A stretch of 59,930 nucleotides of DNA, counting the filler, from Dugesia japonica (lineage: Eukaryota): the NCBI GenBank assembly GCA_001938525.1. It is 6 parts of 6 records of this genome, joined end to end, with 100 filler letters (N's around TTAATTAATTAA, not from the genome) between each part and the next. Parts side by side here need not be neighbours in the genome. Positions count along the whole stretch, not along the records: positions 37,283 to 47,689 come from MQRL01265446.1; 5 more parts are not named here. One strand, written 5' to 3'. Within the stretch, counting starts at the first letter, position 1. Each line of letters starts with the position of its first letter. Positions 1,493 through 59,930 of this stretch are shown one piece after another. The notes beneath the pieces are model-generated. The model saw nothing but the letters and a program-made list of their open reading frames with translations. It was not told the DNA's origin and ran no database searches. The position numbers and the translations under genes are program-made.

Positions 1493-1528
<36 letters not shown>

Positions 1529-9185: not shown

Positions 9186-9254
9186 GTGGATGTTGAATGA
9201 GTATTTTGAATTGGAATTTTTATTTGTTTTAAAGTTATAATATTAATTTCTTAC

Positions 9255-9489
9255 TGAGCGTGAAGAGAATCATTGCTGTCCGGGTTAACAGATTTAATGA
9301 GAAGACGCGATACCGCAAANNNNNNNNNNNNNNNNNNNNNNNNNNNNNNNNNNNNNNNNNNNNNNNNNNNNNNNNNNNNNNNNNNNNGCCCCTAGATTAT
9401 GTGATAATTGGTTGAAAGCAAGAGTGATGTCAGTCAGAGATGGTTTAAATTAAGAGCATTGAAATATAAAAAATCCTAAAAACCCAACA
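9255..9489 (+). mobile_element. Diverged terminal fragment of the TGTTGGG/CCCAACA element family (see 41873-44991)
   Basis: Shares tgagcgtga, gggtt, aagacgcgataccgcaaa, gcccctaga and aaatcctaaaaacccaaca|atat with the reverse complement of 42105-41869. The 68-N block sits where the other copy has 69 nt. Confidence 0.75.
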
Positions 9490-15335: not shown

Positions 15336-15479
15336 TATGGAAATTCGAAATGACGTTGTTTGAATAATACGAATTAACGTTAATTTATATTTATTAAAGA
15401 TTCTAATCTTAGTTGCTATTGAAATATGATAGAGTACAAGGATATTGTAACTATTAGAGTTGCCAAATTTCTTGCAAAT

Positions 15480-17669: not shown

Positions 17670-17797
17670 TTGAAAATTGAATTTATATATAAAAAATGAA
17701 TTTTTAAAAAAATTTAAAAAAATTATAAATTATTTACATTATGAAATTTAATATTTTGTTATATAATTTATTTACTATTTAATGATAATGTTTACAT

Positions 17798-20450: not shown

Positions 20451-20916
20451 ATATCCCACCTAAAAATAATTTGATATATTAAAACAAATTTACCTTTAAA
20501 TCAAAATAGATTTGTAAATTGTTGTAATGAGTATTTTTTAATTTTTAATTTAATAAGTTCAAACTGTCTTTGGTGCTTTAAATTAAGAATAAAACATGGA
20601 CACAAAAAGCGAAATTACTTTCCAAACAACCAAATAAAATGTGTGAAATTAATCGTTTTGATATTGAAAAGTATTCGGATTATTTTCCTAAAAATAGGTA
20701 TTTATAAGTAAAGCAATTTCTTTAAATACCTAGCGATATTTAAAGCATATGTATAAAATTTTCCTTTACCAGCTAATAAAAGTTTAAAAATAAATTAAAC
20801 TTTTCCAATTATTTGTAATTATATAAAATTAAATTCTTTTAAGCAATACCATTTCAAATTAAGTAAGTGTGATAGAAAACTTTAAAAGCGAATTAAATTA
20901 TTTTAATAAAGCTTAC

Positions 20917-23900
20917 CAAGGTAGCATTTTGACTCCGTCGATCTTCTTTAGCAGTAGAAAAGATTTTCTTTTTTGCTAAATTAGCTGCTTGTCTACATGG
21001 TTTAGAAGGCATATTTTGAATTATTTGCAAAATTTTTTGATTAGCAGTTTTTCCAAATTCATTTTTATTGTTATCATCAGATTTTTGAAGAGAGAAAACA
21101 ATTTTTTCAGAATGAAAAGAACTACCTTCTAACTTTGACAAGTCTTCATTAGTTGATTTAAAAAGTTTAATTTTAATCGGTTTCTGATATTGAGAATCAT
21201 CATTAGATCGAGATTCTGAGGTTAAATGAGATATTTCTTGATTTAAATAATTTCTTAAATCTTGATTAGTATTATAAACATCAGAACAAACTGTATCATG
21301 ATTTAAAGAGTATTTCCTTTTTCTATTTTTGCGTTTTATTTCATTATTAAGTTCAGCTAGTTTTTCATATTCTTCAGAAGAATTCATTTTATAAGTTATA
21401 TCATCAGATCCAATTATACTACTAAGAAAATGCCTCAGTTTCTTACGCTTTTTCGAATTTTTTTTATGTTTTTTAATATTCGTTGATTCTTCTAATTGAT
21501 CAGGATCTTTTTTTTGAACTTTAATTTTTAATGAAAATGAACCATAATTCCTAGAAAAAGTTTCAACGTTATTCGAATCTAAATACGTGTTAAATTCATG
21601 ATTTGGAGAATCATTTTCAACATTAATGGATTCATTATCATCATTATCAAGATTTTCATTGTAATCTTTAGATTGTAAAACTAGATGCGTAATACTATCT
21701 TTTAATAATTTGACATTTTTATCTAATTTGCCAGAATAATTTCTATAACAATTCAAAATAATTTTAGATTTAGATTTTAATTTATTCTTGAAAATTCTGT
21801 GAACACTTTTTCTCCATAAAGATTTTTTTATAATTTTGTAAACATTAACTTTAGTTTTAATCTTCTTCAAAATAGACCCTTTTAATTTTTTAAAAACATT
21901 TCTTTCAATTTCTTTTAAATTAATTGAATTTATAACATCAATCGCAGAGGTCTTAAAATTATTTCTGAATGAATTTTCTAAATTTGAATCAATTTCCTCT
22001 TTGTTATTAATCATATCACTGTTAACTGAATTAGACGATACACTTAAATTAGCAATTATATCATTATGGGATAGTTTTTCAATAGAACAAATTGGCGTTT
22101 TTAATTTAATATTATTTATAAGATCATTATCATTCTCTAAATTAATATCATGATGTATTTCTGATTTTTTGCACAATCGATTAAATAATGGTCTTTTTAT
22201 TTTTTCTTTCCGTTTTACAAAATTAGTTTTTTGTCGGCATTTGGTTCTTAAGGAATATGTTTTTTGAAAATCTGATACTTCATTTTGTTTCTTTACAATT
22301 GGTTTCTCAAAATTTTTTGATTGATTCGACATATTTGATAAATTTTTATTTTCGCTTAAGTTACTATCAATTAAATTATCATATTCTTTCCTTTTTATAT
22401 GACTGCTGTGATCAGAAATTTCATCTATTTCAACGATAACTAACGGAGCATCTAAACTTTCAATATCATCTGTATCTGAAATCGGTTCATCAGTATTATT
22501 AAAACTCTGAATTTCAATAGTGGCACTATAAGAATCTGGAATAAACTGATTATACATCGAAGTATTAATCAATATATTGCTAGGTTTTATAACTTTTGCA
22601 AATTGACTGCAACATTGAAATCTACAAGGAAAATCGTTTAGACTCATATCTATCAAAGATGCATATTTTATATTGTCGTTTTTCACGTTTGATTCTAAGC
22701 CACTGTAAATTCTCAGTTTTTTATTAATTTTTCGAACTGGATAAAACTTTTTATTAATAAACTCTGAGGTGTGATTATAAGCGTAACGCTTATTTTCCAC
22801 AAAATTTGCAGTCTGGCAGACATTAACGTTAACCGTTGGATATAAAAAATTCTCTATCACAGATTCAATAATTATAGCTTTATTTTCAAAGAAAGCTAAA
22901 TGGAAATCTATGTTTTCATATTCATCTGCATTATTTTTTATCATAGCATTGTTAATATTGTATTGCAGGAGTTTGGTTTTTCTGAATTTCCTCATTCTCT
23001 TAAATTGATTAAGTTTACTATTACTTTTTAAAGTATCTTTTTTATTAATCTCTGACATATTTTGGACATAATTATTTTTACTTCTTTGAATTTTCACATA
23101 AGAGTTGTGTTCTATAAAGTGTTCATTTTCACGCTTAATTGAAATGCTATTCTTTCTTAAATTGTATTTTCTGATAACGTTTGAGTTTTTATAATCAGAT
23201 TTAAATTGATTTAGAATAGTTTTTGAGAAAGGAGGTATTTTTATGTTTGAAAGACGAACATCAATATCATCATTTGTTACAATATTTGAATTATCAATTT
23301 GAGTCTGTAGATTGGATAGTTGATCGATATCTGTACAAGAATTAGAATTACTAATCATATTAATATCGATAAAATTTTCACTTGATTTTTTTTCTGATAA
23401 TTCATGAGAATTTAATGAAATTAAATTCAATGAAATTTCTTTGTTAGAAATATTCTTTTGTGGAACTTTGCTTTTTGAATTCGAAGAAATTTTGTGTCTT
23501 GAAATTGCCTCATAAAATGAGTCAAAGGATTTAGATATAGAACCTTTGGAACGAGTGCATCGCTTAAAATCTGTACTTAACTTTTGCTTTTCTGAAAATT
23601 CAGCCTTTCGCTTAGAATTCATTTTTTTATCAATAGCTATAGAAAATTTATTTTCAATAAAATTAATAGATTGATAAATGGCCAATTTTTTAGGAGGTTT
23701 TCTAAGACGCCTTTGCCTATCTCTTGGAATATCAAACATATTTTCAATTTTATTAATTTTAAATTCTTTAGGAGGATGAATTACTTTTTCGGATTTTTTC
23801 CCTTTCTTCTGTTTTTTTAATGTACTACATACTGTATTTTTAACTTTGTATTTCTGTGATTTATTTATGGGACAATAATCAACATCTAACTCATCAGTTC

Positions 23901-26900
23901 TAATCTTTTGGATTTTATCTTTAACATTATCTTCAATGAAACTTGTAGACATGTTTTCAAAATCTTTTGTAATATCACAATTCATTTTTGTACAAATCAT
24001 ATTTGTTTGATTTCCAATTAAAATTGTTTTTTCATTATTATTTTCGATGTTGCTTTCTAACACTACTAACATATTAAAATCATTTTCCGTTTTATCATTT
24101 AATTTTGTATTACAAATTACATCATCAACATTTTTAAAAGAAATCGAACCATCTTCCGACGATTTTGTCAAATTGTGAAAATCCTCAATTGACTTACTTT
24201 CACAACAAACATTGTCATTTAAAACATGTTCTTCGCTTCTTAAATTTACTTTAGAAAATATATCGAGTATTTTAAGTTCGTCATTACCAATATACCAATT
24301 TTTAGACTGATTTTGAGTTAAGTCATATTTTTGAAAAAGTTTTAAACTTGGTGTATTTTTTATAAAATCATTAAAGTACAATTTTTTAGTGAGATCAAAT
24401 TGTATTTTTTTCATTTTATTTATTCTACTATTAAAATAATTAAACCTTGAAAATTTAAAAGCATATTCATCGATATCTTCATCCTCACTTTCATTATCTG
24501 ATTGTATAGGTGTAGCATCTGATATATCTTCTAAAATAGGTGGTTCAATATATTTGTTGTCATCATCAATAATAGTATTTGCTGATTCATGATTTAAGGT
24601 TTTCATATTTAAAGAAATTTCTCCATCTGTGCAAAACTCAAATAAACCAAAATCATCTAATGTTTTAGACTTTAATGCAGAATCAGTAACGTAGAATGAT
24701 GACTCGTTGTTACGCTTTGAATCGAAATTTATTGACATCAAGCATTGAGTTTTTTCATCTAATAATGCATCATTTGTAGAAGAATAAATAAGCTCTATAG
24801 AAGTATTAGGAATAGTACAAAAGCTAATAGTATTATTAGTATTATTACTAAAGTTTGCTTCCGAAATATGATCATTTTCTTTAGAAAAAATATCTATTTT
24901 ACTTTGACCATCCGAGCTTTCACACATACTATAAATCTTAGACTTAAGTGTTGCTTCGGAATCTTGTTGTGAAGAACTACATGATATTTCAATTTGTTTG
25001 GCAATCTCCGAAAGTTCGTTAGATTCTTTTATATTCAAATCTATTTCCTTCTCTGAATCTTCAATTATTAAATTAGATCGGCAATTTGAATCTATGTCTT
25101 TAAGAATGTTATCATTAATTTTTGAAATTATAGGACATTCAATAGTTGTCGGTAAAGAAACAGGAATCACAGATTGAGAATCGCATCTTATAAGTTCATT
25201 TTGATGACTACCACTATATTGTGCGACAAATTTATCAAGAAAAGCATTCTCTTCTTTTTCAAGTTCAGTCAACATATCTTCAGTATTGAGATTAACAACT
25301 TCAGCAATTTCAATGCACTGTGGCATTTCAATATTGGATGAATTATTTGAATAATTATTTAAATATGTAGAAGTTGTTACTGATGGTAAAACTGTACTAC
25401 ACGGGGGTAAGGTAGTGAAAGAAGATGCATAAGATACTCTGGAATCAATGTTTATCTGGGTTGTGGAACACCTAGTTAGTTCTGTAATATCATCCTTTTG
25501 AATATTTTGTAAAAATTGGTCGAGAATTTCACTTGACACAAAACCATCTGTACCCAAGTTGCTGGCATCATATAAATTGTACGCAGTTGTAAAATCATCA
25601 GTATTACTTAACTCTGCATTAGATATTTCCCAAGCCAAGGAAAGAAGATCTTTTTCGCCAGAATCAGAATTATCCAATAGAGTATTTGAATTAATTTCGT
25701 TAAAAGAATGTGATATAGCAACATGCGGCTGATTTAAATAATCTGATGAATCGTTATTTACATAATAATTGCATTGATATGTACTACGGGTATTCAAAGA
25801 ATTATTGCAGTTTTGTTTCAGTGAATTATTTTCATTATACTGACATGCCTCTTGACTATCTATACTATGCGTTGAAGAAGCATAGCTGGAATTTTTATGG
25901 GATTTTGCTGGAGCACCTCTCTTACGACCAGATTTTTTACCTTTATTACCTTTGCGTCTGCCAGGACCGGATGGGGCCGGAAGCGTGGAACTATTCAAGC
26001 TATCTTGATTGTTAATTGATGTATTTGGACTACTCGTTTTGGGAGCAATTAACGGCTGGCGATATGTTGGTTTAGAAGGTTTTGGAGCTATAGCTCTCAT
26101 TTTTTTACCAGCTGTTATATTAATATTTGAGGACGGACTATAAAGTGAAAGCAACTGATTTGACATTAGTTGACCAGTATTCATATGTATTGATATAGGA
26201 TTAACACCAGATGGTTGAGAAACTGGAGTTAGAGGTAAATTTAAAGGTAAAGTTATTGGCTCACCAGGTTTGAAATTTGAAGGAATATGAAGCAAAAAAT
26301 TCCCAATACCTGGTAGTTGAACCTGAACAGATTGTTGAGACATGCTTAACGTATTTATTGACTCCACATTTTGTAATGTAGAATTTGTGATCTGATACTG
26401 TGACAAAGTATTGTTCAATGAATCATCAGGATGCTAAACATTTAATTAATAAAAATGATATTCAAAATAAATAAAAATTTAAAAAATCTCAAAATTCGTC
26501 ATTAAACGATTTATTTATTTAAATTAATTAATATTAAAATGCTGAATTAGTTTCGAAAAATTCAAACAGTTAAAATTTCCTTCTTTTAATTCTAAATGAT
26601 GATTTAATCGAAAATAATTCTATATAATTTTTAAATTAAAAAAAATTGAATGTCTAAATAAGGAGTCAGCATCCATTTTTTAGCTGCGGATCAAAGTAAA
26701 AAAAATGTGACTATTAAGAATACTATTCGGGTCACTGGATATATATACACATTAATAAAAAATCATCTTTTTGTTTTTTTTAAATAACTCAAAGATTATT
26801 CTCGTGTTGCAATGAAGTTTAGAATGTAATGTAATTGAGATTAACCAAAAATAAAAATATATAAATTAAAAGAATTGTGCATAAAAAAGTAAAAAATAAT

Positions 26901-32470: not shown

Positions 32471-33268
32471 CAGGCGTCGACAAATCTATAACCGTGGGTT
32501 TCCGAGTGACACATTTGATAATTTTAAGGGATCCACTTGAGTTCTGAACTTATAAATGTGAGCAAATATTTCAAACATGAAATTTATTTTAAATAAGAAA
32601 AGGAGTAACTAAACAACAAAAAATTCAAATGATTGTATTCGTCTTAAGACGACTTATATTAGCTAGACTTTGCTAAATTGAAATCACAAGTAGGGTATGT
32701 AATCCCAAGATCCCGGTATTAAAGTGGTGGGATTCCTGGATCGTTTCATTTTACGTATTGATACAGTCCTTGTCAAAACCTTATAACAAAACGTCTATTC
32801 ATTCTTAAACAAACAACAAAACCATCTGTTGAACACTCATGCTTTACTTGGCTGTGCATTTAGCTTGAATGTCTACCAAATTTATCGTAATTTTACTGTA
32901 TGACGTATGTTGTTTTTAATTTGTACAGTCACATGCCTTAACTGTTTCATTGAGTGCAGCACATCAAAAAAAACGCTGGGATTTGTATTCCATAATCACA
33001 AGTTCAACATCAGAGGAACCATTGATATTGAATAGAACGCTTAAAAATAAAGTTTATTCAATTATGTTTATTTAAGTTTAAAAGCGTATTGTAAGTATAT
33101 TCTCAATAAAATTGATTTTATTATTCATCAAAAAGGATTGCTTAAAAATGAAAATACCATTGTCGCATCCCATCAATAGATTACGACAAAACCATTTCTT
33201 TAGAAGAATGAAACTACATATTGATATCAAAACTTTTACTGATTTTATCACCTGTTATTCCCAAAAGG

Positions 33269-33302
<34 letters not shown>

Positions 33303-33483
33303 TTACTCCCAAAAGAGTAAATTGATATCAAATTAAGAAGAAGTATTCAGAGAAATTTTACTAAATAAAAGTATGAAATTTTATAACCAGTTTTCTAAGC
33401 ATTTTTCAAAATACAACAAACACTTCTTAATACTCACATTTTGGAAGATTTTAACCCGCAGCCAAAAAGGTTGTCGACGCCTG
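32471..33483. mobile_element. Non-autonomous hAT element
   Basis: Perfect 13-bp TIRs caggcgtcgacaa / ttgtcgacgcctg; 8-bp TSD ctttagaa / ttttagaa (7/8). Confidence 0.88.
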
Positions 33484-35064
33484 TTTTAGAAGATAATATA
33501 AATAATATCTAAAACAATTTTAAACGAAACCTTATAAATATAAGGTACGTTTGAATCACTGATTTTTAATGTTTTCAAATATTTTTCACTCATCAATAAA
33601 TTATTGAATACTTGAGAATTTTATGTATAAATTCTAAATTTTTATCAGTAATTTTCCCGGTATCTTAGAAACAAACTGCAGAAATATAATTGGAAAAATT
33701 TCGTTATTCTTTTTTAAAAAATTCAACAAAAATATTTAGTGAAATCTTTAAACAAATTGCAAATGAATATTTGTAAGCCTATATTTCTTAATAAATATTT
33801 AGTTAATAAAATTAAATAATTAATATTTTTAAAATAGTATGAAAATTAGATAACGGAATAATATCAATAAGAAATTCTGAAAATTTGTAACGTAATAAAT
33901 GTATTTTTTCGTATTAAATATAAAATATAATAAATTTCAACAATAATTTCATGAAAATAAAATTTGTTCATAAAAGTTATTGAATTAGTAATACTTTTTA
34001 TGGCATATACGCCTTTAATTTGATATTATTTGTTGATTATTTGCTGGCACTAACAAATGATAAATAATTCAAAAATTCTATTTCTGCAATTACCTAAATC
34101 TACTGTAATTTGCATACACGTCTCGGATTTCTATTGGTTAATATTATTCTCACAATTTTATTATTTAACATGTCATTTGAATTTTAGTATGCGGTAAGAG
34201 AATCAATTTTTGAAACAAATAAATTAATTTTGCAAAATTTAATTACCCTTTAAAGTTTGAAATTAATGAATTTTGATCTAATTAGTAGTATTGACATCAA
34301 TTAACTGCTTTGAGTTTTTTTTTTTGTAAAATGTTTCAGTTTTCGGTTTTCGTGGTTATTTTAATGCATCTTGTCTATGTAAATTAGATTTAGCTAACTG
34401 AGCATAATATCTAGCTAATAACAAAATTTTATATAATATTTGGCCTATTTTATTATTGATATTTAATAGAATGAAGACAGATCGAGAATTGCAATAGAAG
34501 ATGCGGAAATTATCAGAGATTAATTTTTACAATATTCATTTGTCTTTGTCTATGTTTATTGTCACTTTTCTCAGTTTTTGCTGTTGTCGTAAATGATTTA
34601 TCGTATCTCTTTGAAAATAAAATTTCTGATTCTATCGAAGTAGAAAAGAAACTTTGTTGCTTTAATATTTTAAAAGTTAATTGTATTTGCCGTTAAAATT
34701 ATTTGCACATTCCAAAATTATTTTAAAAGTTTAAAATTTTTTCAATAAATATTTTGAATTTTTTTGTTTTATTTATTTATTATTTGATTCCATACTAAAT
34801 TATCGACAAATAGTAAAGTGTCAGATTTTGTTTTAATATCTAATAATTGTATGATGCGGTATAATGTGTACTGAAATTCTGTTGTACTGGTGCTAGTAAC
34901 AAGGAGTTCTCAATCTTTTTGTGGCGCGGGTGTATTTTCGGTTGCAAAAAGTTGTGGTGGGCATAATTGGATTTGAAAATAAATGCAAAGTATTATGATT
35001 TTTATTAAATCATACATTTTATAAATAATATTTAATATAACATAGTGTAATCTTTGACACTTCT

Positions 35065-37182
35065 GCTGGGGTTCCACCTCAGTTGGTGTTATTGAAAAAT
35101 ATGGCTTGCGAAAAACAGCCCTCAGGGGATCCCTTAAAGAATTGACCTAATGTCCCTTATTAGTACTTCAGTGTAATAATAATAATTTATTTGTAGTACG
35201 TACTAATAAACCTTTGTCTTCGGGTTCATTATTTTCCCTTTTATTTACCAAATAAATTAACAAAATACTAAAATTAAGATTTATTGTTATTTAACTACAT
35301 ATATTCTAGAGCACCCCGGTCTAACCACTGGATAGGCTCTCCAGACATGAAACTAAATACTGATTCGTCGTCGACGTTATTCCATCTCGTCCATGTCTCT
35401 TACTCACGGCGATTGGCTAAGTCGGCAATATATTGCTAAAGAAATTCGATTTTTTGTGTAAGGATTTGTTTTGCGTGTTCCGCCAACTCACCTTGCTTTT
35501 TAACAATAAGGTCCAATTTTTTAATTAAGCGGTTCCTCTGGGTTAGATGACGTAACAATCTCCGCTCATTTTGTCATTTTATATAACGCTCTAGCAATAA
35601 TTTCTGAATAAGTCGGTGACAACAACGGAGACTGTTAGGTAAAAGAATTCTCGGCACTGAAAAGAAATAGGAAAGTAAAAATCACTCAAAAACCATTATA
35701 GTCAATTCAATTATTCAAATTATTATAAATGAAAAATAATCAAAAAGGTGTCATTAGTAGATTACGACTAAAAGATTTTATTTTATACATAAACAAAAGC
35801 AAAACACGCTATGGTCGTGAAGTTTGAGTTGACTTATCCACCATTAATGGTTCAAGTGGCATGCGTTTCCTCAGTTCTAAAACATCTGCAACCACTTTAT
35901 TGTCATGGCCATGGAGGGACGANTGATCTCAAAAAAGGACTCTAGCTGACCTTTCCAGAGCCGTTCCGGTGCATGGGAGACTTCGACTTCCTTACGAAAC
36001 GTGATGCATTTATTTTTGTTTCTTTTTACCTTACTTACGGCTGCAGCTGTAGCAGCCTCCCAGCGACGTTTGGCCAATTTATACACGTCCCACGTCATAT
36101 AAAGGTCTTCGCTATTTTCTCCAATCTTTTTGGTTGGAGCGGATGATCGGTTGAGTGAGGAGGGCACTGGAAAAATGAAACATAATTGAATAATGAGTCT
36201 ACTCACTAAGGGGATTAATACTCAATAAGATTTAAATGAAGTTTATTATGAATGGTCAAATATTAATTCATGATAATTAAATAANTAAGATAATTAAACT
36301 AGCATGGAAATAATAACAAAAGAAGAAAATGAACACTCGATTAATGATGAATGTAATTTATTAACAATATAAGAGTAGATAATTATTAGAAAAGAAAACA
36401 CAGATTTGGTGTTATTTATAAAGTCACCTAACCCGGAAAATGGTGGTAGATTGGATGGAGAGATAAGGACCACGGAGGGTCCTTCCTGCCACTCTCTAGT
36501 CACCTGCGATTCACCGTTGGAATCTAATCGTGTGGTGGTGACGACGTGAAATGTTTCACGGGCACGTTTAGGCCCTGTCCACTCATAATAGACCTGGCGC
36601 TCAACAGCGTNNNNNNNNNNNNNNNNNNNNNNNNNNNNNNNNNNNNNNNNNNNNNNNNNNNNNNNNNNNNNNNNNNNNNNNNNNNNNNNNNNNNNNNNNN
36701 NNNNNNNNNNNNNNNNNNNNNNNAGTACTTTCCACTTATATTCGACTAAATTAAATAAACATGTGCAAAAGTTAAAAGAGAAGATATGACAATAATTTAT
36801 AATTAACAATAAAACAAATATAACAAAGTCACAATTAATAATGATGTATTAGAATTAAGGTTCTAAATCCAAATCTATTTGACTGGCCTTTACCAGTGGA
36901 AAAAGTTCAATGAAACAGCGGAGGTCTGTCTCATTCAGGTGTAAAATGAGTGACGTGGCTAAAATATGCCCGATCAGTTGGCGTTTCTGCACTTTTATTT
37001 TTTCTTGGCGGATGAATTCGAGGGTGACGCGGAGCAGATCTGACATTAATCTAAAACAACAAGGTTTAAGGGGGAAATCTGATGCGAAAATAAAAGTCAC
37101 CGGAAACTCTTTATTGGTCAAATGTGGATTAAGGTCCCGTCACATCATTAATATCTAAGTATACCCAAAATCCATGTGAGTC
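35065..37182 (-). mobile_element. Multi-cassette element, second family member, cut by the contig end
   Basis: Begins tgctgggg (compare tgttggg), has an agggga..gtccctt stem, then GC-richer minus-strand ORF cassettes 35295-35656, ~35809-36205, ~36294-36745 and 36855->37180 separated by AT-rich spacers. Confidence 0.55.
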
Positions 37183-37330
37183 NNNNNNNNNNNNNNNNNN
37201 NNNNNNNNNNNNNNNNNNNNNNNNNNTTAATTAATTAANNNNNNNNNNNNNNNNNNNNNNNNNNNNNNNNNNNNNNNNNNNNTTCAAAGTTATTATCGAA
37301 ATTTAAAATTTTCTGTTATAACAAAAGTTA

Positions 37331-38200
37331 TTAAAAGTCATCATAATTAATAAATAATGGAGTTGAATGAAAGGATTTCTGAAAACGCCTGCGTTTACAT
37401 TTGTGTATTATGACATAGAGTATTATTGGTGATAAAATAATAACAGAAGCACATACGACCATAATAATAATTCCTGTATTGCTAGATTCCTGTAATTCCA
37501 AATTTGTGGCATTTTCTGTAGGCATTTGAGATGTTGACTGACAGGGGAAGTTCCTACAGTTATATGTATAATATTTTTGAATTATTGTCGTATTATTCCA
37601 TTGAATTTGATGATCACGTTTCAAAGTAATACTATTGATATTGTTAGAATTATAAAATTGGCATTTGTAAATTCCATGACAATAAAATAAAATTATTTCC
37701 CATTTATTTGTTTTTAATAACAATGTTGACAATCCTAAATTTTCTTTTTGATTATGAGGACAAATAACAAAAAGTCGAAATTGATTTATCTCAAGAATAT
37801 CTAGAAAACTGTTTTCTTCTATATTTTTTGGATTCATAATTGTTAGAGAAGTTAAATTTTCTAGACCTTTAAAAGTTGCATAAGAAAAATTATTAACTTT
37901 AATATTTGGTATTTTGATTTCATTAATTTGTTTCACTTCGGCTAAAATTTTAACAAAGACCTCGCTAAATATTGATTCGACATGAACTTGATTTTCATTT
38001 GCAGATAATGTTATTGAGTTATTCTCATTGCTGTAATCACAATTAATTGATTGAAAAGTTGAATTATAATTAGAATTGTTAGCCTTACAAATTAAATTTC
38101 TCTTTTCTACATAACAGTTGATATTATTGCATTCCATTGAGATAAAATTGAAATAAAAATTAAAGGAGAAATATAAGAAAAGAATAAATTTAATATTCAT
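37331..38200 (-). CDS. Single-exon type I membrane protein with LRR-like ectodomain, 289 aa
   Basis: Hydrophobic N-terminal signal, Cys cap (ECNNINCYV..LICK), LRR-like NIKVNNFSYATFKGLENLTSLTIMNPKNIEENSF, TM GIIIMVVCASVIILSPIILYVII, basic stop-transfer HKCKRRR, tail ending YDDF. Confidence 0.7.
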   Translation of the reverse strand: MNIKFILFLYFSFNFYFNFISMECNNINCYVEKRNLICKANNSNYNSTFQSINCDYSNENNSITLSANENQVHVESIFSEVFVKILAEVKQINEIKIPNIKVNNFSYATFKGLENLTSLTIMNPKNIEENSFLDILEINQFRLFVICPHNQKENLGLSTLLLKTNKWEIILFYCHGIYKCQFYNSNNINSITLKRDHQIQWNNTTIIQKYYTYNCRNFPCQSTSQMPTENATNLELQESSNTGIIIMVVCASVIILSPIILYVIIHKCKRRRFQKSFHSTPLFINYDDF

Positions 38201-41200
38201 AATTATTAACGTAAGATTTTAATGAACGGAAGTTATTTTATAAACAGTTAGATCAACAAATTTTACTTAATGGTTTATAATTTATAAACAAGAATAAATT
38301 GATAATNNNNNNNNNNNNNNNNNNNNNNNNNNNNNNNNNNNNNNNNNNNNNNNNNNNNNNNNNNNNNNNNNNNNNNNNNNNNNNNNNNNNNNNNNNNNNN
38401 NNNNNNNNNNNNNNNNNNNNNNNNNNNNNNNNNNNNNNNNNNNNNNNNNNNNNNNNNNAATACTCAATCTAGAGATATTTATAAAGAAAAACGAAATCCT
38501 CTAATCACAGTACTAATTAACTAGAATTCATTTCTCAGCTTTAGCGTAGCTTTGTGGGCAGCATATTCTTGACGAGAGGTCGTCTAGTGTGAATTAGATA
38601 TGAATTTATTTAGTTAGCTGGATATAAAGTTTCAATTAGTTTTGTATGAAGAAAAAAATGTGAAGAACTAATTAATAAATTAGAAATGAAAGCATGTAAA
38701 ATTTCCACTGAGAATAAATCAGTAGAAGATCGAACTGAAAAATCATACTAGAAAAATGGAATTCTTTACCGAATACATTTGGTGCAATGAAAAAGATTAG
38801 CAACTTCACTATTAAATAGGTTGCAATCATCATATGAGTAAGTAGATGTGAGCGCATGACCGCAGGTCCCCCACTAGCGAAAATATATTACACCTGCAGT
38901 ATGCTATCGTACTGGTTATCGTGGATTTATTGATTTTTGATAGGATCAAAATCGACAAAAATGAATTTTTTTCTTTTAATTAATGGGGGAATTTTGCGGG
39001 AATTTTAAATTTTGTTTTAATTTAACACATTAATTAACACATTACGATTGTGCTATGATTTTTTGGTTATTTTTTTTCTAAGATTTTTGGGATCAAAATG
39101 TTTTTGATCGGATCAGTTTTTTTGATTCTGGGGATGCGCGTGTGTATTTTTAAATTTTAAAATTTGTGTGTGTTTGAGTTGCTAAGTTTAAAAAGTAGGT
39201 CAGTTTAAAAAGAAGTAGTAGTTTAAAAAGTTGCTACTTTAAAAAGTAGGTCAAGTTGAGTTTGTGTGTGTGGTTGTGTGTGTACGTGTAAGAATGATTT
39301 TGGACTCGAGGAGGAGCTGGAGATCTTGGAAATGATTTTTTTGGAGTTATTAAGGTTAGATTGTGGCTTGAAAAAAATTTGGTCTATACATTCTCTAATG
39401 GATTTATGAGATTGGATGGATGGTTTTCGCTAGAAGGGTAGTAGCGCCCTGCCACAGGCGTATGAGTTATCGTGGCGTGTTTTTTGGGAGGGTGTAGATT
39501 AATATGGGGTTATTGGATTTAGAGGGTTGATGAGTTGTTGGAAAGGTAATGTGATGGAAAATATTTTGTATGTCGAATGTGCTTTGATTTTTTATTTTAA
39601 GAGCTTGAATTTGATTAGCTGATATTTGTAAGTAGTATAAAAAACTTTTCGGGAGGGGAAGAGTGGTATGGGTGGAAAGATAATTAATTATCAAATTTTT
39701 TAAAATTTATTTGAAATTTTTCTGCCGCGTGGTTATGATGTCATAATCTTTTGAAATCTTTATTTTGAGAAAAATGCTGTATTTTGCTTAAATTGATGAA
39801 TTATTCGAAAGTAATGGTATTTTTGAGTATATTTTGAGTATTTATGATTGGGAAGGGTTGTTTTTAATATTTTTCGATGTTGGAAGAAGGGATTCTTTAT
39901 ATTTTTGAAAACATTTTTGGTGGTAAATGTAAAAATTATTTTTTGGCGGGAAATTCAAAAATTTATTTTTGCATGGGAAATTTATATTTTTTTGAGCAGT
40001 CTTGATATTTATGGATGGGGAGTCTCTTTATATTGAATGAAATGGAGCAGTCTAAAATTCCCAGGCACGTGATTTTCAATGTATGTGTGTTGCATCTGAG
40101 TTGCATGTCTATTGCATTTATTAATAAAAAATGTCCAGGCTCGTGATTTTTAATGTATGTGTGTTGTATATTCATTGCATAAATATTGCATACATATTGT
40201 ATTCATTAATAAAACACTATTTACAATAAGAAACATTTATTACAACAACAACTATTTTTCTTTTCTTCTTTAATTTTTTTCTTCTTCTAGATAGATTTCT
40301 ATTGGTTCCTGAATTTCTATTGGTTCTTGGTTGGTTTCTATCCTTTCTATAACCAATAAAATTATACAGCAAGTACAAAATTACAGATTCTTTTAAATAT
40401 TTCATTATACTAAAAATGGTAGATTTTCGCAATTCATCGCACAAGCAAAATGAATTGTTCAAGAAGATAGATATATGCAACAAAGGTAATAAAGATAGTG
40501 CAGATACTCTATCCAATCAAAGATATACAGTGTTAACAATCGCGAATCAAACCTATACACTAAACTATATGGACAATTTAAATAGGTGTATAGTAAATAA
40601 AGTAGAGAGAATAAAAGGAGAATACAATAGTAGGTAGATAGTGGCACACGGGCACAATTTTTAAATTACACCCTTCCCCCAGATGAGGGGAGGCTTGGAA
40701 ACATATTCCGTTAAAGCTGCGTTTTTTTAGACATGATTTTTGTACTCGTTTTTTTCCTAAGATTTTTGGGATCGAAATTTTTTGATCGGATCAATTTTTT
40801 TGATCTGATAAGTTTTTTATCCGGAAAGTGTGTGTGCATTTTTAAATTTTAAATTTTGTATGTGTTTCGGTTGATAAGGTGGTTTTTAAAAAAAAAGGTC
40901 AAGTTGTGTCTGTGTGCGGTTGTGTATGTGTAAAAGACTGGAAAAAACGAGGAGGTGGAGCTGGAGATCTTGTAGATAATTTTTTTGTGGTTTTGAAGAT
41001 TTTTTTGTTGTTGGACAAAAATTTGGTCTATATATTGTCTAAAAGACTTATGACTTTGGATGGATGGTTTTTGCTACAAGGATAGTGTCACACGGGCACA
41101 GTTGTATGAGTTATCGTGGGTAAATTTTGTGGGGGTTGTAGGTTTTTATGTTTTTGATGGAATTTGTTGGTTGATGTGTTGTTGGAGAGGTAATGTGACG

Positions 41201-42214
41201 GTGAAGATTTTAGTTGTCAAATGTGCTTTGACTTTTTATTTTAAGGGCTTGATTTTGATTGGTTTATTTTGTAAGTAGTATAAGTGTGTTTAAAGAATTT
41301 TTCGTGAAGTGGAGGTATGGTATGTGTGGAAAGAGAATTAATTATTGGATTTTTTANGATTTATTTGAAATTTTTCTGTCAGTTGGTTATGAAGTCATAA
41401 TTTTTTGAAATATTTAATTTGGTTAAAAATGCTGTATTTGATGAATTTAATGAAAGTAATGTTATTTTTGAGTATTTGATGTATTTTTGGATATTTTTTC
41501 GGTATTTTTATCAGGGAAGTGTTGTTTTGTAAGATTTTTGAACGAGGAAGAGGGTAGTCTTGATATTTTAAAAAACTTTTGGCGGGAAATTTAAAAAAAT
41601 ATTTTTGGTATAAAATTCAAAAAAAAAATATATTTGGCCAAAATTCAAAAAAAAATATTTTTGGTTGGGAATTTTTCATTGCAATGGGGGGATATCTTTT
41701 TATTATAATTAAATTAAATTTAATTTAATTTAATTACTTTTTTATGTACGAGATGGGATAGTCTTGATATTTTGCATGCAGAGTCTCTATATTTTGCAAA
41801 AAATGGGCAGTCTTGATATTTTTTAAGATATTAATACAAGATATTGGGCAATCTTGATATTTTTTAAGATATTGTTGGGTTTTTAGGATTTCAAATAATT
41901 TGAATTTAATATCTGCACTCTACGTAATCGAATATTTTCCTAGATACACAAGTTCGATCTTTTTCGTCTAGGGGCATACCTAAAAACCACAAGCATTTGA
42001 GTCACCTCTGTGACATGCCCCTCTTAACACGGGTTCAGCGCAACTTTGCGGTATCGCGTCTTACGTTTCTTTTTCATGAACCCCCATCACAATCACGCTC
42101 ATTTGCTTAGTATTGATTTTCCATAAATCAGGTTTAAAAAATAAATAAATAGTCATACATAACCGCGAATAAATATAATAAGAATCAATGACTTTGAGAA
42201 CTATTTATTCACCT

Positions 42215-42540
42215 CTATTCACATGCATCTAAATCCACCATGGTATTCCCCACGCGCGGCTCATCCGCTGGATTTCGGTACAACAACCACAGTGCCCTCA
42301 AATTGTTGAAGACCATGGCCTCTCTGTCGGCATAAAGTTTGATAATTTCGGCCATCAACCGATTGGTTTGCTTCAATGCCAACTCTTTCTCTTTCAGTTG
42401 TTGATATTTGCTACTATGCTTGGTAGCCTGGCTCTTCAGTTGCAGTACTTCATTTCTTAGCACCCGACACTCCTCTTTCCATTTCTTCAGCAGGGCTATC
42501 ATCTCTTTCGTTGAAGTCTTATTATCCGGTGTCGGATTCA
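42215..42540 (-). CDS. Cassette ORF, coiled-coil protein of unknown function; starts at an acceptor-like tttcag|TG
   Basis: Open frame NPTPDNKTSTKEMIALLKKWKEECRVLRNEVLQLKSQ...DACE with heptad character, GC-richer than its flanks. Confidence 0.55.
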
Positions 42541-43070
42541 CTGAAATAATCATAATAGTTAATTTTGACATCAATTATTCGACTACGTATCGGTTGAAAT
42601 ATAAAAATGAGAAATTGTCAAATTATTTCAATTATTTACAAGGTTAAAGTCTTATACTATGAAATTGATTCTTATTACTGCTAATACTGAGAACAAGAGT
42701 CGATTGTATACAGCAGTATTATTCAAATAAAACCTATTTCATGACAACGACTCAATGATGTTTTCTCGATTCGATACGGATCAAATGAATTGTCCGGTGA
42801 TTACTACGTTTCCTTGTAAATAAACTCAACAACAAAGGATTAGTTATAATCCATTATCCCCTAATTTGCGAATACATTTCTTATCTTCACTCTCATTTTG
42901 GTTTATTTAATTAAAGAAAAATTTCTTTTTGACTAACAATTAAAATTAAAATTATTCAAAGATTGCCTCTGCAATCATTGTGACATACATATCACTTTAT
43001 TTTTCTCTAACAAAAACTCAACTAGATTAAAATCAAAAAAAACAGTTCTCATTGAACACTCGGTATATTT

Positions 43071-43496
43071 TTATTTTTTGTTCACCACATCGACATTTGT
43101 GACAGGACCGCTCAGACCCATCAAATCTCGTATGATCGTGTATTCTTCTTCCTCAGCTTGGGATTCCAGGGTGCTGTTCTCATCAATCCAGCTTCCCATT
43201 TCCGCTTTCGAATGTCCATTATCCTCCGTCAATGTTCCCGATCCGGTCTCCTCAATAACCGCCCTTAATTCATCCCGTTGGGTCGTGAGGAGGCGTAAAT
43301 TTTCCTCCAGGAGAGCAATTCGCAGATTCGCGATCTCAAAATCGGCGCTTAAATCTGAAGTTGCCTCGGCACAATATTTCTTCTCCAGGTGGATCATACT
43401 CTGAACCTCTGACCATTCAATATAATATGTTCCGTTACTGTCGAAATATTGCCAGATATATCAAGGCCGCTTGAGGTTTCGTCTCCTGTTTACCAT
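43071..43496 (-). pseudogene. Cassette ORF, coiled-coil/acidic protein with one in-frame stop
   Basis: ttag|ATG VNRRRNLKRP*YIWQYFDSNGTYYIEWSEVQSMIHLEKKYC...LRIALLEENLRLLTTQRDEL...NKK. Confidence 0.55.
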
Positions 43497-46400
43497 CTAA
43501 TAAATGACCAACAATTATTATCAATCAAAACAAATAAGCATATTAGGGTAATCTTAATAATATTTATTAATGCAAATGGATAATTTTTGAAACGATTTCT
43601 TCGGCCTGAGGCCTATCATTTTTTCCGTTTCAGAACATGAACCAGAGAAGATACCTGCTGGAAACAGCCATCTTTCCTCGTTCCCATTATTGACAAATAA
43701 TATCATTAGATCAACACAATCCTGAAACAACAACTTATTTTAAATACAACGAAAAATGTAATAATTAATAATCACGGAGCCAATAATAAAACTGTGTAGA
43801 TATTTTAATCAAACCATAAGTTGAATAAATATTTTAATGATAAAATTTAATTCATGACAAATATGTCCACGATGTGTGAACAGTTAAATAAATCTCCAAT
43901 AATGGGAACATTACTATTACAAATCAAACAACAGACAAAAAATTGAATTGGAGCATAATAAGTCTGATATAAACTGCTACTCGGTGAAATTTGGCAAGAG
44001 CTCCATTTTCTCCTCAACCCACAGTCACTATCTCACAACTCTTTCCTTAATTCTCGGCATTTAATTCTCCTCAAACTATACTCGTGGAACATTCTCCTTA
44101 TGATCTCTATCAGTCTCGTACTGATCTCAAATCTCTTTTCATATAGTTGAACAACCATTTAACTCCCCAACGCTCCCTTAGTCTCACGAGTTATTATTTC
44201 AACAAATTTGGGTAAGTAAAATTATCTCTCGCTCGCGAGCATACCACGATCATCTCTAAAACCTATCAACACCAAAACAAAAATTTTTAAAATAAACTTC
44301 TGATTATTTTCTCCGTGTATCGATATTTCTTTCCTTCGAAGATTGACGAGCTCTCATTGCTCGCCCAATCGTTTGTCCTCGTTCTGTAATCTCGACATTC
44401 TATTGGATATTGTTTCCTGTTTCTCGTGAATACTTCTGTTGTTGTGCGGATTTCTCTATCCGACCGATGATTGACATCGAATTTGGAAAACCAAATTCGT
44501 GTGGTCAGGAGAATGTCCTTGTCTCACTATCTAGTTTTTCAACTGAATCATCGCTTGGAAAAACCAGAAATAAACGTGACTGGACCAGAATAAATCGAAT
44601 TTTTAATAATATTAAACGCTAATTAGCGTTATTTATAATAACGATAATGGGTCGTAGAGGCNNNNNNNNNNNNNNNNNNNNNNNNNTTATAGTATTTTAT
44701 ATTATTTTTATTATTTGGCTTATTATTTCCTATTGATACATCCAAAATTCATTACTACTTCTTCAAATTTGGGTCCTCTACGCCCAATTTTCATTTTTTT
44801 CTCGTCTCAATAATAATTGTATAATAATTTTAATAATAATAATTACATAATAATAATGATGATATAAGGTAAAATATCTGGTCCAGTACCAATTTTCATT
44901 TAATTTTCCACTTGCTCTCTGATAATTTTCGTATTATTTGGGGATGCTTTGTTATCTCTTTTGCACCAAAATTATGTGTTCTAGCCCAACAATATTATTA
45001 CAAGAAATTTATGCATGGTATGGGCAGTCTTGATATTTTCGAGTATATTATTACAAGATATCAAACAATCTTGATATTTTTTAAGATATTATTACAAGAT
45101 ATCGGTAGTCTTGATATTTTTTATAAGATATTATTACAACATATTTATGCATGTTATAGGCAGTCTTGATATTTTTTAAGACATTATTACAAGATATCGG
45201 AAAGTCTTGGTATTTTGCATGGTATGAGCAGTCTTGAAATTTTGAATGGCTAGCTACTATATTTAACATGAGAGCCTCTATATTTAGCATGGGATGGGAC
45301 AGACTTGATATTTTGCAAGGTATGAGACAGTCTAAAATTCATAGGCACGTAAATTTCAGTGCATGTGTGTTGCATCTGAGTTTTATCTGAGCTATATACC
45401 AATTTCATTTAAAATATCAATAAAAATTCCCAGACATGTGATTTTTAATGTATGTGTGTTGCACCTGAGTTGCAACTGAGTTGCATATCTATTGCATTTA
45501 AAAAAAATCAAAATGCCGGCTATTTTGAGTTTTATAAACTTATTTTTTGGTGAGAAATTTATTAAAAATTCCCAGACATGTGATTTTTAATGTATGTGTG
45601 TTGCATCTGAGTTGCAACTGAGTTCCATATATATTGCATTTAAAAGAAATCAAAATGGCGGCTATGTTGAGTTTTAAAAACTTATTTTTTGGTGAGAAAT
45701 TTATTAAAAATTCTCAGACTTGTGATTTCCAGTGATTTTCAGTGTATATGTGTTGCAGCTGTAATGCTTCTAAGTTGCATTTATGAAAGTATATCTATAA
45801 AAAAAACTTCAAAGAGGGGAGTCTTTGTGATATTTACATAATAAAAAAATTATTAAAATTAACCAAAGAGAGGCGTCTTTGTGATATTTGCATAATAAAA
45901 TATAACTTTTATTAAAATATTCAAATAAAAAAGTTCATAGAGGGGAGTCTTTGTAATATTTGCATTATATAATATTCAAAATAAAACTTTTCTTTACAAG
46001 ATGATAAAAACATAGAAATGTTTTCATAAAAATATATTATTGATGCAATTTTAAATAAAAAGTATCATTAGTGTTGCAATTTTTAATAAAAAACATATTG
46101 ATTGAGAACATTTATGAGAACAAAATGATAAAAAACATAGGACTTTTCCATATATAGCTAATAAGACTATATAAAAATATTTTCATGATTGTATAGTTAC
46201 CTTGTATTACTTTTTACATAGCAACAATGTATTATTTACATAATGACCCTTTATTATATGGTTTATGAGTATATTATTTGCATAGCAACAATGTATTTTA
46301 AAGATTTTGAATGTATTATTACATAGTAACCTGGCTTATCGTGTTTATAAGTATATTATTTACATATCAACCGCGTAATAAGAGATCACCATGCAAAGTG

Positions 46401-46714: not shown

Positions 46715-47689
46715 TTAGGTTGTCACATATGAAATGTCCAATTACGTAATAGACAATAAAATCAATAAAAGTCCAATAAAATCAAATTTTATTTAAGTAA
46801 AATAGTCACCATCGGATTCTATACATTTTTTGCCATCTAGACACTAGTTTCAAAATACAATTAGCAAAAAACATTTTTTCTCTGGAGTCTATGAATTCGG
46901 ATATGGGCATTTTGACATCCTCCCAAAAAATTATCAAAATACTTAAAAAAATGACAATCTGTTGGAGATAAGTCGGGCGAATATGGTGGATGTGGCAAAG
47001 TTTCAATTTTTTAGTCTGTCAACTTTTGCGGGCATTATCATGCAAGAGGATGATTCCTTTTCTATTGACCAATGAAGGCTGTTTAATGCATAAATGTTTG
47101 TGCATTAAATAAATTTCAGAACAGTTTTTGTCTGAGTTAATAGTTTGACCTTCTTCTAACAAAGAAAAATGTATGACTCTAGCTATGGACCACCAAACTG
47201 TCAGCATTGTCTTTTTCGGATGTAAATCCGGTTTAGAACAGTGTAAAGGAGGTTGATCGGCATCTAATCATTGTGCAGAACGTCTACGATTGTGATGAAT
47301 AACCCATTTTTCATCACAANNNNNNNNNNNNNNNNNNNNNNNNNNNNNNNNNNNNNNNNNNNNNNNNNNNNNNNNNNNNNNNNNNNNNNNNNNNNNNNNN
47401 NNNNNNNNNNNNNNNNNNNNNNNNNNNNNNNNNNNNNNNNNTTTTTTCTTTCCAATGCCTTTCAAATGACGGGAAATTGTTTGACGACTAACGTCTAACG
47501 TTTTACTAAGTTGTCGAACTGATTGACTAGTGTTTAGTTCCACTTCAAGTTTTACATCGTCGTTGCTAATAACAACAACGGGGCGCCCCCTTTTCATATT
47601 GACCCGGGTTTATTTACCCTTTTCAAATTTGTCGAACCATCTCCGAAGAGTTCTTTCATTAGCTGAACCCTCTCCAAATGCAAAATTAA
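46715..47689 (-). mobile_element. Mariner element, degenerate, cut by the contig end
   Basis: TA + ttaggttgtcacatatgaaat terminus; RGRP, CDEKWVIHHN, LHPKKTMLTVWWS, ILLHDNA and HPPYSPDLSPTD motifs. Confidence 0.9.
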
Positions 47690-56797: not shown

Positions 56798-58599
56798 CAG
56801 TGGTTCACAACTAGGGCTTCCAATAACAGAATCCCGGGATTGTTATACTTTACTAAATTTTATCAATTAGAATAAATATTCTAATTTTATTTTAAAATGT
56901 TGTATATAATAAAATTTACAAGTTAACTATGACTATTTTTGTTTGAATGGCAGAGATTTTGGTTGAAGCTCTTTGTCGTAAGGACGCAAACCATATTACG
57001 ACAGACATCACTATTAGTTATACGTTGAAAAAACTGGAGGACGCAGATAATATTATTAGTCGAAAGATGTTTATAGCTTTAACTATTTGAACGAAGCAGC
57101 ATCGAATGGATTAAAAAGAGGACTTTTAAATTACCTACATAATAGCTTGAATAGAATCTGTTAACCCGACCGTTAGTTGGGTTTTGAAAACTCATCGAAT
57201 CNNNNNNNNNAGAATTCAAATTCATTACAACGATTTATTAATATAAAAAACTATAACGACACTAATTGAGTTTTTAAACAAATTAAATTCCTGTTTTAAA
57301 TTGGTGATCGTTTCTTAAGATTTTTTTAAAAATTCATTTAAAGCCATTTGATTTTTTATTAAGAATTTTAAAATAAATTTTCTTTTAATTTCAAAATTTA
57401 AAACAATTACTTATTAGCCATTTGATTTTTTAAAACAGATTTTTTTAAAATAAATTTTCTGTTTACTTATTAAAATTTAAAAACAATTACTTATTCGTAA
57501 TTTAATTTTTCATTTCAATTGAAATCTTTTTCAAAAAATATTTCAAGAAAAACGATCACCCACTACACAAAAATTTCAACTCACTCAAAACATACTCACA
57601 CCGACAAAGAGTTCATTATAGTTCCAACGCCAACTAAGAGCCGTAAATTAATTGTAGATCATCTTGAAAGATTGAATGCAACTTCCATAACAGAATTTTC
57701 TACAATAGTACCTGAAATTGATGAATTCGAAGATGTTTCTGTGCAGGAGGAAATCATTGAAACTATTTCTGTACAACCGTTAACTACAGCCGAAGAAATT
57801 AATAAAGCAATAAATGATGGCATGTCACGTCCATAACTGATACCACATCGATACGAATCGTTAACATCCAAACTCAAAAAAATAATGGCTCTACTTGAAA
57901 ATGGAGGGTCACGTGGCGATTATTAAAACTGTGTATACACATATTTAAAAACGAGAGAACCAATCAGTATCGAGTCAGAAAGACCCTTTTCTCCTGCAGA
58001 GTAATTTTGTAATACATTACCAAGTTCTTTGGGTGATAAGGTTCTAGGTGAGCTCTATTTCCTTAGATAGCACTTTCAACAACCAAAAAAACTTAATCAA
58101 TATTCAATTTTAATACTTCTTAATTTTCAAGATATATTTTATTTTCTAATGTGTATGAATTATCACTATATTTGTTTAATAAATAACGCGGTTTTTTATC
58201 ATTTCGTTTTATATTACTAATGAACTCTCATTATGTTACTAATTAAAAAATTTAATTTTGCACTGAATTTAAACAAAAGATCTAATTTTTACTGTACATT
58301 AATTTTGTTTAGCATAATAAGTCAGTCCTGTATTGATAAAATGTAATCCCGGATTGAAAATTATGTCCGTGATTGGAAACCCTATTCACAACATCATCAG
58401 TTTAATTCCAAGTCAAGGGCCATGCATGCAAAAACTTCAGGCCTAAAGTTGTGCATCTCTGATATTATAGGTACTATACTATATAACTTCGAAAATTTAA
58501 TATAGCACTGCTAGTATAGTATAACAGCTAGTATTTTGGAGGAGATCGTTGTGAATTCGTGAAATATTGGTTGTATAAAATTATATTTGTGCATCACTG
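56798..58599. mobile_element. Small hAT MITE (outer), split by an inner hAT element
   Basis: TIRs cagtggttcacaa / ttgtgcatcactg; perfect 8-bp TSD atctataa at 56790-56797 and 58600-58607. Confidence 0.8.
56812..58384 (+). mobile_element. Internally deleted hAT transposon (inner)
   Basis: TIRs tagggcttccaat / attggaaacccta; perfect TSD ttcacaac; transposase relics VEALCRKDAN.. and dimerisation-domain-like EPISIESERPFS..SSLGDKVLGELYFLR. Confidence 0.9.
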
Positions 58600-59129: not shown

Positions 59130-59745
59130 GAGTCGGTTCCGATTATCCAAATTTGAGATTTGATAAGTATAAAAGAGTTATTGGATCTAGCAAGAATTTG
59201 GATTCCATAAACAAATTTCCACGAATGGCTACAAAATAGTCTAAGTGTCGGCATATGGACAATGATCGAAACAAATAATAGCTAGATGGCGCACAATCGT
59301 GGGAATATGGAAAATGTGGCATCAGCTCTCATTTTTTAGTCTTCTTTGCTGCATGTGATTTAGCGGTGTCTTGGTGAAGTATCACTTTCTTCGTTGACTA
59401 CTGCTAGCCGCTCAACTTTGAGAACGGCTGTCAAACGAATTAATTGTTCGCATTAAATGGCTACATTAAAGGTCTCGTCAGTCTTTAACATTTCTAAATG
59501 AATTATCTCCATGTAGTCCCACCATATGCACAATAGAATTTTCTTCGGGTGCAGCCCTAATTTGAAGGTATCGGTACTTGACCTGGAGATAACCATTGAA
59601 TTTTTTTTTAAATTTTCATGGAACACCCATTTCTCATCTCCAGTTACTATTTGCTTCCATAAGGGTTCAAGTTCATGGCAAAGGAGTATTGAATTCAAAA
59701 TTGAGAGACGTGATTCTTTCAATATCACTATTCCCATTTCAAAAT
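59130..59745 (-). mobile_element. Mariner transposase relic
   Basis: WKQIVTGDEKWVFHEN, GLHPKKILLCIWWD, LHQDTA and PHFPYSHDCAPSSYYLF motifs. Confidence 0.88.
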
Positions 59746-59930
59746 ATTTCTGATTTTGTTCAGCAAAAAATGCTTTCAGGTATATTTTGATACTGTCATC
59801 TGAATTTTATAATTACAATTATTGCGAGAATAATTGTTGGACTTAACCATTGATCCCATCTGAGATTTCATTAAAATAAGAAAAAGCTTCGATCAAAATA
59901 AAATTTATTTGTAAAAAAGTTCAAATTTTC

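Follow-up and report, generated by a model that had tools for sequence, protein, structure and literature searches.

A solo-LTR-like insertion in the planarian Dugesia japonica that carries an array of putative acceptor-led coding cassettes

Introduction

Long terminal repeats (LTRs) are usually regarded as non-coding regulatory ends. In complex retroviruses, as in adenovirus, a single leader can be spliced to any of several acceptors, and the resulting transcripts use different poly(A) sites; this shared leader is mostly non-coding, is not fixed in phase and does not lie within the LTR, and the HBZ product of human T-cell leukaemia virus 1 (HTLV-1) is a spliced protein with a basic leucine zipper. 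The published consensus for LTR ends is TGTTRNR..YNYAACA, with TGTGGYG as the 5′ LTR motif of the CsRN1 clade (excerpts of PMC3601003), and solo LTRs in tapeworm carry 4-bp ATAT duplications at their flanks (PMC4558846). The planarian giant element Burro measures over 30 kb in total against an internal region of up to 25 kb (PMC6431247); it is briefly mentioned in PMC11410931 and PMC13238120, and the excerpts of PMC8797187 hold nothing relevant.

Here, we analysed a stretch of 59,930 nt, filler included, from Dugesia japonica (the window hereafter; six parts of assembly GCA_001938525.1 joined end to end), in which the part from MQRL01265446.1 (37,283 to 47,689) holds a 3.1-kb insertion, element A. 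The element is genuine, and its architecture is both unusual and recurrent: between LTR-like ends stands a series of short, coding-like cassettes led by splice-acceptor-like sites, and a second element of unrelated sequence in the same window, element C, supports this layout.

Ends, insertion site and copies of element A

The insertion is delimited by the following features:

41873..44991 (no strand assigned), 3119 bp: element A, a TG..CA insertion belonging to a multi-copy family
44985..44991, minus strand: terminal motif TGTTGGG (7 bp) at the far end, fitting TGTTRNR (PMC3601003)
41873..41879, plus strand: terminal motif TGTTGGG (7 bp) at the core end, where 19 nt are identical with the end of a related element, element B
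41869..41872: left-hand ATAT of the target-site duplication
44992..44995: right-hand ATAT of the same duplication

On the minus strand, element A starts with TGTTGGG (44991-44985) and finishes with CCCAACA (41879-41873), matching the LTR consensus (PMC3601003), and both ATAT copies sit within a single host repeat unit, which represents one site in an AT-rich target. These are the ends and the duplication that an earlier reading, made from the sequence alone (the sequence-only reading), had described, and both were found as it had them. The inverted termini extend over 7 bp, with no longer terminal inverted repeat. Because the ends match the LTR consensus, the duplication is 4 bp long, a long terminal inverted repeat is absent and copies are many, an integrase-type insertion and solo-LTR-like unit is supported, and a solo-LTR origin is probable. 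The host repeat struck by element A (38900-41870 and 44992-46000) is a very high-copy, strongly strand-skewed composite that holds a 1.65-kb degenerate duplication as well as tandem units of 41 and 142 bp.

A search of sequencing runs with element A returned 20 partial matches from nine studies, the best with a share of 0.24 (DNA) and no RNA run among the matches listed. Two runs aligned to the element at 85% likeness, X1 (probably DNA) and X8 (RNA, by guess only), span 30 of 30 bins in pieces about 90% alike, and the longest X1 pieces carry 6-21 differing letters per 135-198 nt. Element A is an interspersed multi-copy family with diverged copies, and the copy in the window is old and decayed. 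None of the 40 differing sites shown (out of 409) falls within the stop codons of the six frames tested. The uninterrupted host unit is also present in two DNA contigs of X1 (joint 41870 to 44996, with a 23-letter side), which, the host repeat being multi-copy, are no proof of polymorphism at this site. Summed X1 depth, a ranking rather than a copy number, was 176-5,517 over the cassettes, 32,516-46,361 at 44430-44649 and 162,071-173,018 at 41900-42119; two modules of element A are far more widely shared than its cassettes.

Cassettes of element A

Candidate cassettes and related frames lie on the minus strand:

42215..42540, minus strand: clearest cassette, with acceptor, phase 1, 107 open codons, predicted coiled-coil-like helices and AATAAA 5 nt past the stop
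43071..43496, minus strand: cassette in phase 0 with its own ATG; codon 12 is a stop, 129 open codons follow, and the final stop is overlapped by AATAAA
43554..43721, minus strand: cassette whose 55 open codons are in phase 0 rather than in phase 1
43960..44262, minus strand: decayed cassette with fewest stops in phase 1, its frame contested by the codon model
44290..44579, minus strand: acceptor-like site and GC-rich block of ambiguous frame, overlapping a high-copy module
42720..43021, minus strand: two weak acceptor-like sites (43021, 42812) with no clear frame; the site at 43913 is equally weak
44721..44899, minus strand: far-end pair of short ATG-led frames that resemble each other, containing open phase-1 GTs at 44889, 44781 and 44739; candidate leader

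The sequence-only reading had proposed GC-richer cassettes between AT-rich spacers, each opening behind one of eight T-led AGs, with phase 1 where the frame is long or protein-like (44579, 44262 and 42540). GC does vary as a mosaic (0.14-0.58 in 50-nt steps), with a step that is slight or nil (0.00-0.05) at 43913, 43021 and 42812. All eight AGs are present where proposed and T content in the tracts leading up to them is high (ranks 4-23 among 193 minus-strand AGs), although 42812 reads AAG, not YAG. When a GC step of 0.10 or more is required as well, five acceptor-like AGs remain on the minus strand and none on the plus strand against 1.7 expected, a modest excess (block-shuffle P 0.040-0.048) from one of five rules tried, with P ranging overall from 0.04 to 0.19.

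The common phase stood at 42540 alone, the only clean phase-1 frame among the eight listed sites, with 107 codons and no stop. At 44262, phase 1 has 3 stops per 100 codons against 8 and 12 in the others, but the codon-position model favours a different frame; the same model also disagrees at 44579, where phase 1 meets four stops within its first 18 codons. The frame at 43496 has its own ATG, as had been noted, and is in phase 0. Of the short cassettes, said to read plausibly in phase 1 but as weak evidence, 43721 is open in phase 0, and 43913, 43021 and 42812 are uninformative. Taken by itself, element A would not sustain the same-phase claim. Third-position GC (GC3) is 0.50-0.56 in the two clear element A cassettes vs 0.17-0.18 in two host genes, for which reason these cassettes are not recent captures of host exons.

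Protein searches gave little for these frames. At the Pfam cut-off, no family was assigned to two of two long element A open reading frames (ORFs) or to three of three further element frames, sub-threshold coiled-coil matches aside, which agrees with the earlier statement that no reverse transcriptase, integrase or transposase is recognisable. Relatives of 42218-42574 comprised five candidates, none significant, and those of 36858-37139 none; four of four exact sequence look-ups found the sequence absent, the ESM Atlas returned weak leads only, with recognition below threshold, and Rfam and tRNA scans gave no match. AlphaFold run without an alignment predicted long helices for two cassette products (pTM 0.42 and 0.31), of a kind that matches any coiled coil. 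A single match of 43074-43460 among 1.84 billion sequences, to a six-fold repeat protein, and a 12-residue match in a viral-contig protein scan were both rejected.

Element C and the recurrent layout

34953..37182, minus strand: element C, without DNA similarity to element A, with cassettes at 37078, 36745, 36166 and 35656 and a TGTGGTG end; its other end lies in a gap

BLASTN found no similarity between elements C and A, and their anatomy is nonetheless alike. All four element C cassettes are open in phase 1; 36745, 36166 and 35656 are best open in this phase by the rule fixed on element A (a masked run causes 36745 to be omitted from the window-wide background scan). About 330 bp of non-coding sequence lead up to the TGTGGTG that closes the element, an end that fits the CsRN1-clade motif TGTGGYG (PMC3601003).

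Taking A and C together, a leave-one-out codon-position model selects the open frame in six of six clear cassettes, these frames being 74-129 codons long; five of the six are in phase 1 (P=0.018 at one third, by hand arithmetic), and a phase-1 rule across both elements is suggestive rather than established. Four of eight cassettes have an AATAAA no more than 15 nt from their stop, compared with 13% of background stop triplets, and in the remaining ones it is 46-492 nt away; T-rich tracts follow three of three cassette AATAAA signals examined. There is no early ATG at 35656 and none visible in the unmasked part of 36745, so a coding leader would be needed at both. The acceptor-led terminal-exon layout is strengthened by this second, sequence-unrelated element. 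The last cassettes of A and C were also compared as possible homologues, a candidate that was not significant in shuffles. Since two unrelated families show the layout within a 60-kb window, it is suggested to be common in this genome.

Shared end modules and orientation of promoter-like signals

The widely shared modules and a related end are as follows:

41966..42063, plus strand: subterminal core of 98 bp, common to many diverged families, with inverted-repeat structure (fold z -3.09); probable U3 promoter module
44430..44650: another module of raised copy number, containing TATAAA and, at 44615-44630, a palindrome of 16 bp; it may be the constant promoter/leader from which the cassette unit is served
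9186..9489, minus strand: element B, a related-family end with the terminus and core of element A, the remainder lost in a gap
42099..42149, plus strand: TCAKT initiator-like site with AATAAA 41 nt on; candidate R region, opposite to the cassettes

By BLASTN, the terminus of element B at 9489 is identical to that of element A over 19 nt, and a portion of the 98-bp core follows at an equal distance, the intervening stretch being unrelated; ATAT adjoins the end of element B on the outside. Contig joints (41891-41897 to 41962-41967) link terminus to core in other families, and loose ends flank 41966-42063 on both sides in RNA and DNA runs. Given element B, these joints and the two-sided loose ends, the core is a conserved subterminal module rather than a nested miniature element. 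The terminus of element A can also pair with the core (13-bp inverted match about 90 nt apart, 41875-41991, plus strand; fold z -2.65). N runs such as 9320-9387 and 44662-44685 fall exactly on high-copy modules and look hard-masked. A TGTTGGG at 4658 was considered as the other end of element B, and the intervening sequence offers no support. A scan for the core motif gave no match in viral contigs and one in metagenomes, on a bacterial contig of 69% GC, which was rejected as chance.

TCAKT lies 216-233 nt inward of the TG end, with AATAAA 33-41 nt further, in all three ends (A, B and C); this spacing occurs in 150 of 15,384 background windows. The consensus of loose ends from 32 RNA reads places TATAAA about 25 nt ahead of the TCAKT position. 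All three ends have the initiator-like site and AATAAA on the strand that does not encode the cassettes, which may place the array in antisense orientation to the LTR promoter; transcription of the cassettes antisense to the genomic RNA of the element is somewhat favoured. Promoter-like signals that point away from the cassettes suggest an antisense unit instead of the ordinary retroviral model of sense splicing.

RNA reads

Two raw RNA runs were read in part: X22 to about 25% (493 reads placed) and X21 to about 6% (35 reads). Most placed reads (96% in X22, 94% in X21) continue into unlike sequence, mostly on the shared modules and flanks. Among 24 loose ends shown (887 more lie beyond), none at the listed AGs is leader-like, and the AGs have no RNA coverage. 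A loose end at 44453 was rejected as a junction, as it also aligns as a diverged copy. The RNA blank is weak, with no single-copy control gene and a copy of element A about 10% off the families in X22 and X21. PIWI silencing has been reported for planarian LTR elements (PMC8532177), which are under-represented in poly(A) libraries (PMC6884822).

Proposed explanation and points against it

Our preferred reading, held tentatively, is that element A is a solo Gypsy-type LTR whose accessory terminal exons are each joined, by splicing, to one common phase-1 leader. It would be the solo LTR of a large, abundant Gypsy-type (Metaviridae-like) group, left by LTR-LTR recombination, in which the approximately 300 bp at the 41873 end would serve as the ordinary promoter/poly(A) part and the other 2.8 kb as a row of small exons for accessory proteins, all of them led by a splice acceptor and several trailed by a poly(A) signal of their own. 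Splicing would join any one cassette to a short coding leader that ends in phase 1, yielding a set of small, mostly helical proteins, and cassettes with their own ATG would be independent of its frame. The promoter of the array could lie at the far end or in the internal region of the parent, antisense to the genomic RNA. A former coding function of the cassettes is very probable; granted this and the solo-LTR origin, splicing from a shared leader is the better bet, though by no means secure. It is rather doubtful that an abundant animal LTR group carries in each LTR a modular cassette system consisting of a constant antisense promoter, a phase-1 leader and family-specific, fast-turnover terminal exons.

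Several observations weigh against this explanation. No copy of element A could be tied to a gag-pol partner, no listed contig spans the unit, and no primer-binding site or purine tract is linkable to it; the earlier proposal of a solo LTR or accessory module has the support of ends, duplication and copies and lacks a gag-pol link. Element C, seen with one end and without its duplication, is not proven to be an LTR, and its cassette 37078 (74 open codons in phase 1) was chosen by eye, its T content of 0.43 being just below the threshold. Acceptor-like AGs are not enriched in element A (8 vs 7.5 expected from the remaining window), and one of the eight listed sites is clean in phase 1 and two are open in phase 0. 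Background sites in the window themselves lean to phase 1 (24/55, and 12/22 among those with few stops), against which the phase P rises to about 0.06-0.16 by hand arithmetic. Five of 24 listed far-end GT sites are open phase-1 candidates, none standing out as a donor; no splice junction was seen in X22 or X21, neither run contributing any of the 15 joints shown (88 more lie beyond), and RNA depth in the cassette bins 42120-44319 is nil or trace in both runs. The idea of one leader serving many terminal exons gains from the four phase-1 cassettes of element C and loses by the weak phase rule in A, with no donor identified and no junction seen in the two runs.

The orientation argument has weaknesses of its own. 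The plus-strand AATAAA of A and B has no T/G-rich tract downstream and may be merely the complement of the T-rich tract on the cassette strand; A and B are related to each other; and the cassette strand near the end also carries TCAGT (element B) and AATAAA (element C). A 2.8-kb U5 would also be unusual.

Alternative explanations

Element A could be a solo LTR whose cassettes are independent polycistronic mini-genes, served by spliced-leader trans-splicing or a non-coding leader and using their own or a leader AUG. The order of stop, poly(A) signal, short spacer (50-221 nt) and acceptor resembles operon spacing (at most 300 bp in PMC12582326), and early ATGs occur at 43496, 43913, 43721, 42540, 44262 and, in element C, 36166. 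The AUG-ending leaders described for flatworms (PMC12582326) would fit the phase-0 frames at 43496 and 43721; however, such a leader dictates phase 0, whereas five of six clear frames are in phase 1, 35656 has no early ATG, and the loose ends shown include no leader-like one at a listed AG. We regard this explanation as unlikely.

Somewhat less likely still is an array that is real and a carrier that is not an LTR, namely a whole non-autonomous element, or else viral DNA that was captured, with a Gypsy-like integrase or a Ginger-type transposase as the enzyme of insertion. It would account for the missing paired copy and gag-pol link, the GC of 0.35 in element A against 0.26 in the rest of the window, and the resemblance to Ginger1 ends, which start TGTNR (PMC3601003). 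Ginger1, however, has terminal inverted repeats and element A is inverted over 7 bp only; the asymmetric promoter/poly(A)-like module at one end of three of three elements fits an LTR, and viral-contig scans found no viral relative.

To much the same degree, it is improbable that the LTR carries functionless cassettes, that is, captured host or transposon scraps behind chance T-rich AGs at AT/GC borders. Background-level acceptor counts, the block-shuffle P of only 0.04-0.19 and the phase-1 lean of the background would all follow, as would the lack of homologues and RNA and the failure of 63 pairwise cassette comparisons to reach significance (best p 0.007). Six of six clear cassettes with open frames of 74-129 codons and a coding-like periodicity, the recurrence of the layout in an unrelated element and GC3 far above that of host genes are contrary to it.

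A single multi-exon gene with the cassettes as its exons, or an ordinary pol/env ORF broken into pieces, is very improbable: symmetric internal exons also share a phase and donor-like GTs do occur inside element A, but every long frame ends at a stop, four of eight with an adjoining AATAAA, AT-rich spacers separate the frames, and no reverse transcriptase, integrase or env family matched, although the same search detected a decayed integrase at 14553.

Other features in the window

13000-15400, plus strand: remains of a Gypsy-type gag-pol, decayed but still showing an integrase core (rve, E 8e-07) and stretches that resemble zinc knuckles
16299-17729, minus strand: intronless, highly diverged Shaker/Kv1 channel
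20893-26433, minus strand: single 1846-codon exon after a phase-0 acceptor, no Pfam family
37331-38218, minus strand: ORF of 295 codons whose product has a hydrophobic N-terminus and, at the C-terminus, a membrane segment; no Pfam family
4886-5158, 6756-8310, 47019-47609, 59453-59806, 57500-58000 and 2810-3052: what we take to be mariner, Tigger/pogo, hAT and GIY-YIG-like remnants

No end or core in common with element A was found in the gag-pol remnant. The Kv1 protein is 46-56% identical to those of many animals (at most 56% among the 120 matches listed), and a quick tree (44 rows, using 43 of the 120 matches) puts it on a very long branch near the flatworm rows. The 100-nt gaps of the window contain the TTAATTAATTAA spacer.

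Comparison with known systems

If the modular cassette system described above as rather doubtful is real, each solo LTR would be a self-contained multi-protein locus present in thousands of copies across the host genome. If the arrays encode alternatively spliced small proteins, the long LTRs of this lineage would constitute an unannotated accessory proteome that persists in solo copies and possibly counters host silencing. An LTR-borne exon array was not described in the titles and excerpts searched, and the primary literature on Burro may bear on its novelty.

On the side of antisense accessory genes, the plant elements Retand, Grande and RIRE2 are also Gypsy elements with accessory ORFs antisense to gag-pol, which in Grande have their own promoter (excerpts of PMC11963269 and PMC7264820); these ORFs lie between pol and the 3′ LTR, are long and mostly encode TRP28, whereas those of element A are short, acceptor-led and inside the TG..CA unit. 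HBZ of HTLV-1, named in PMC11963269, is likewise an antisense accessory protein driven from the LTR, with a helical product. It is, however, one gene outside the LTR proper, without an array.

On the side of carriers, Ginger1 DNA transposons have TGT ends and a Gypsy-like integrase chemistry in common with element A, but are defined by terminal inverted repeats, which element A, with its 7 bp, does not possess (PMC3601003). The giant planarian Gypsy element Burro/GYPSM1 shares an AT-rich host, thousands of copies, long ends and accessory ORFs; in the description available, compared here by description only, its accessory functions are assigned to a giant polyprotein plus an upstream ORF rather than to exons arrayed within an LTR (PMC6431247). 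Element A also resembles solo LTRs of animal Metaviridae (Ty3/Gypsy), such as those of the Mag A and CsRN1 clades, in its TG..CA 7-bp inverted ends, its 4-bp duplication and its candidate TCAKT and AATAAA signals; the animal LTR sets modelled in the same source average 213-695 bp, whereas element A measures 3.1 kb and consists mostly of coding-like cassettes (PMC3601003).

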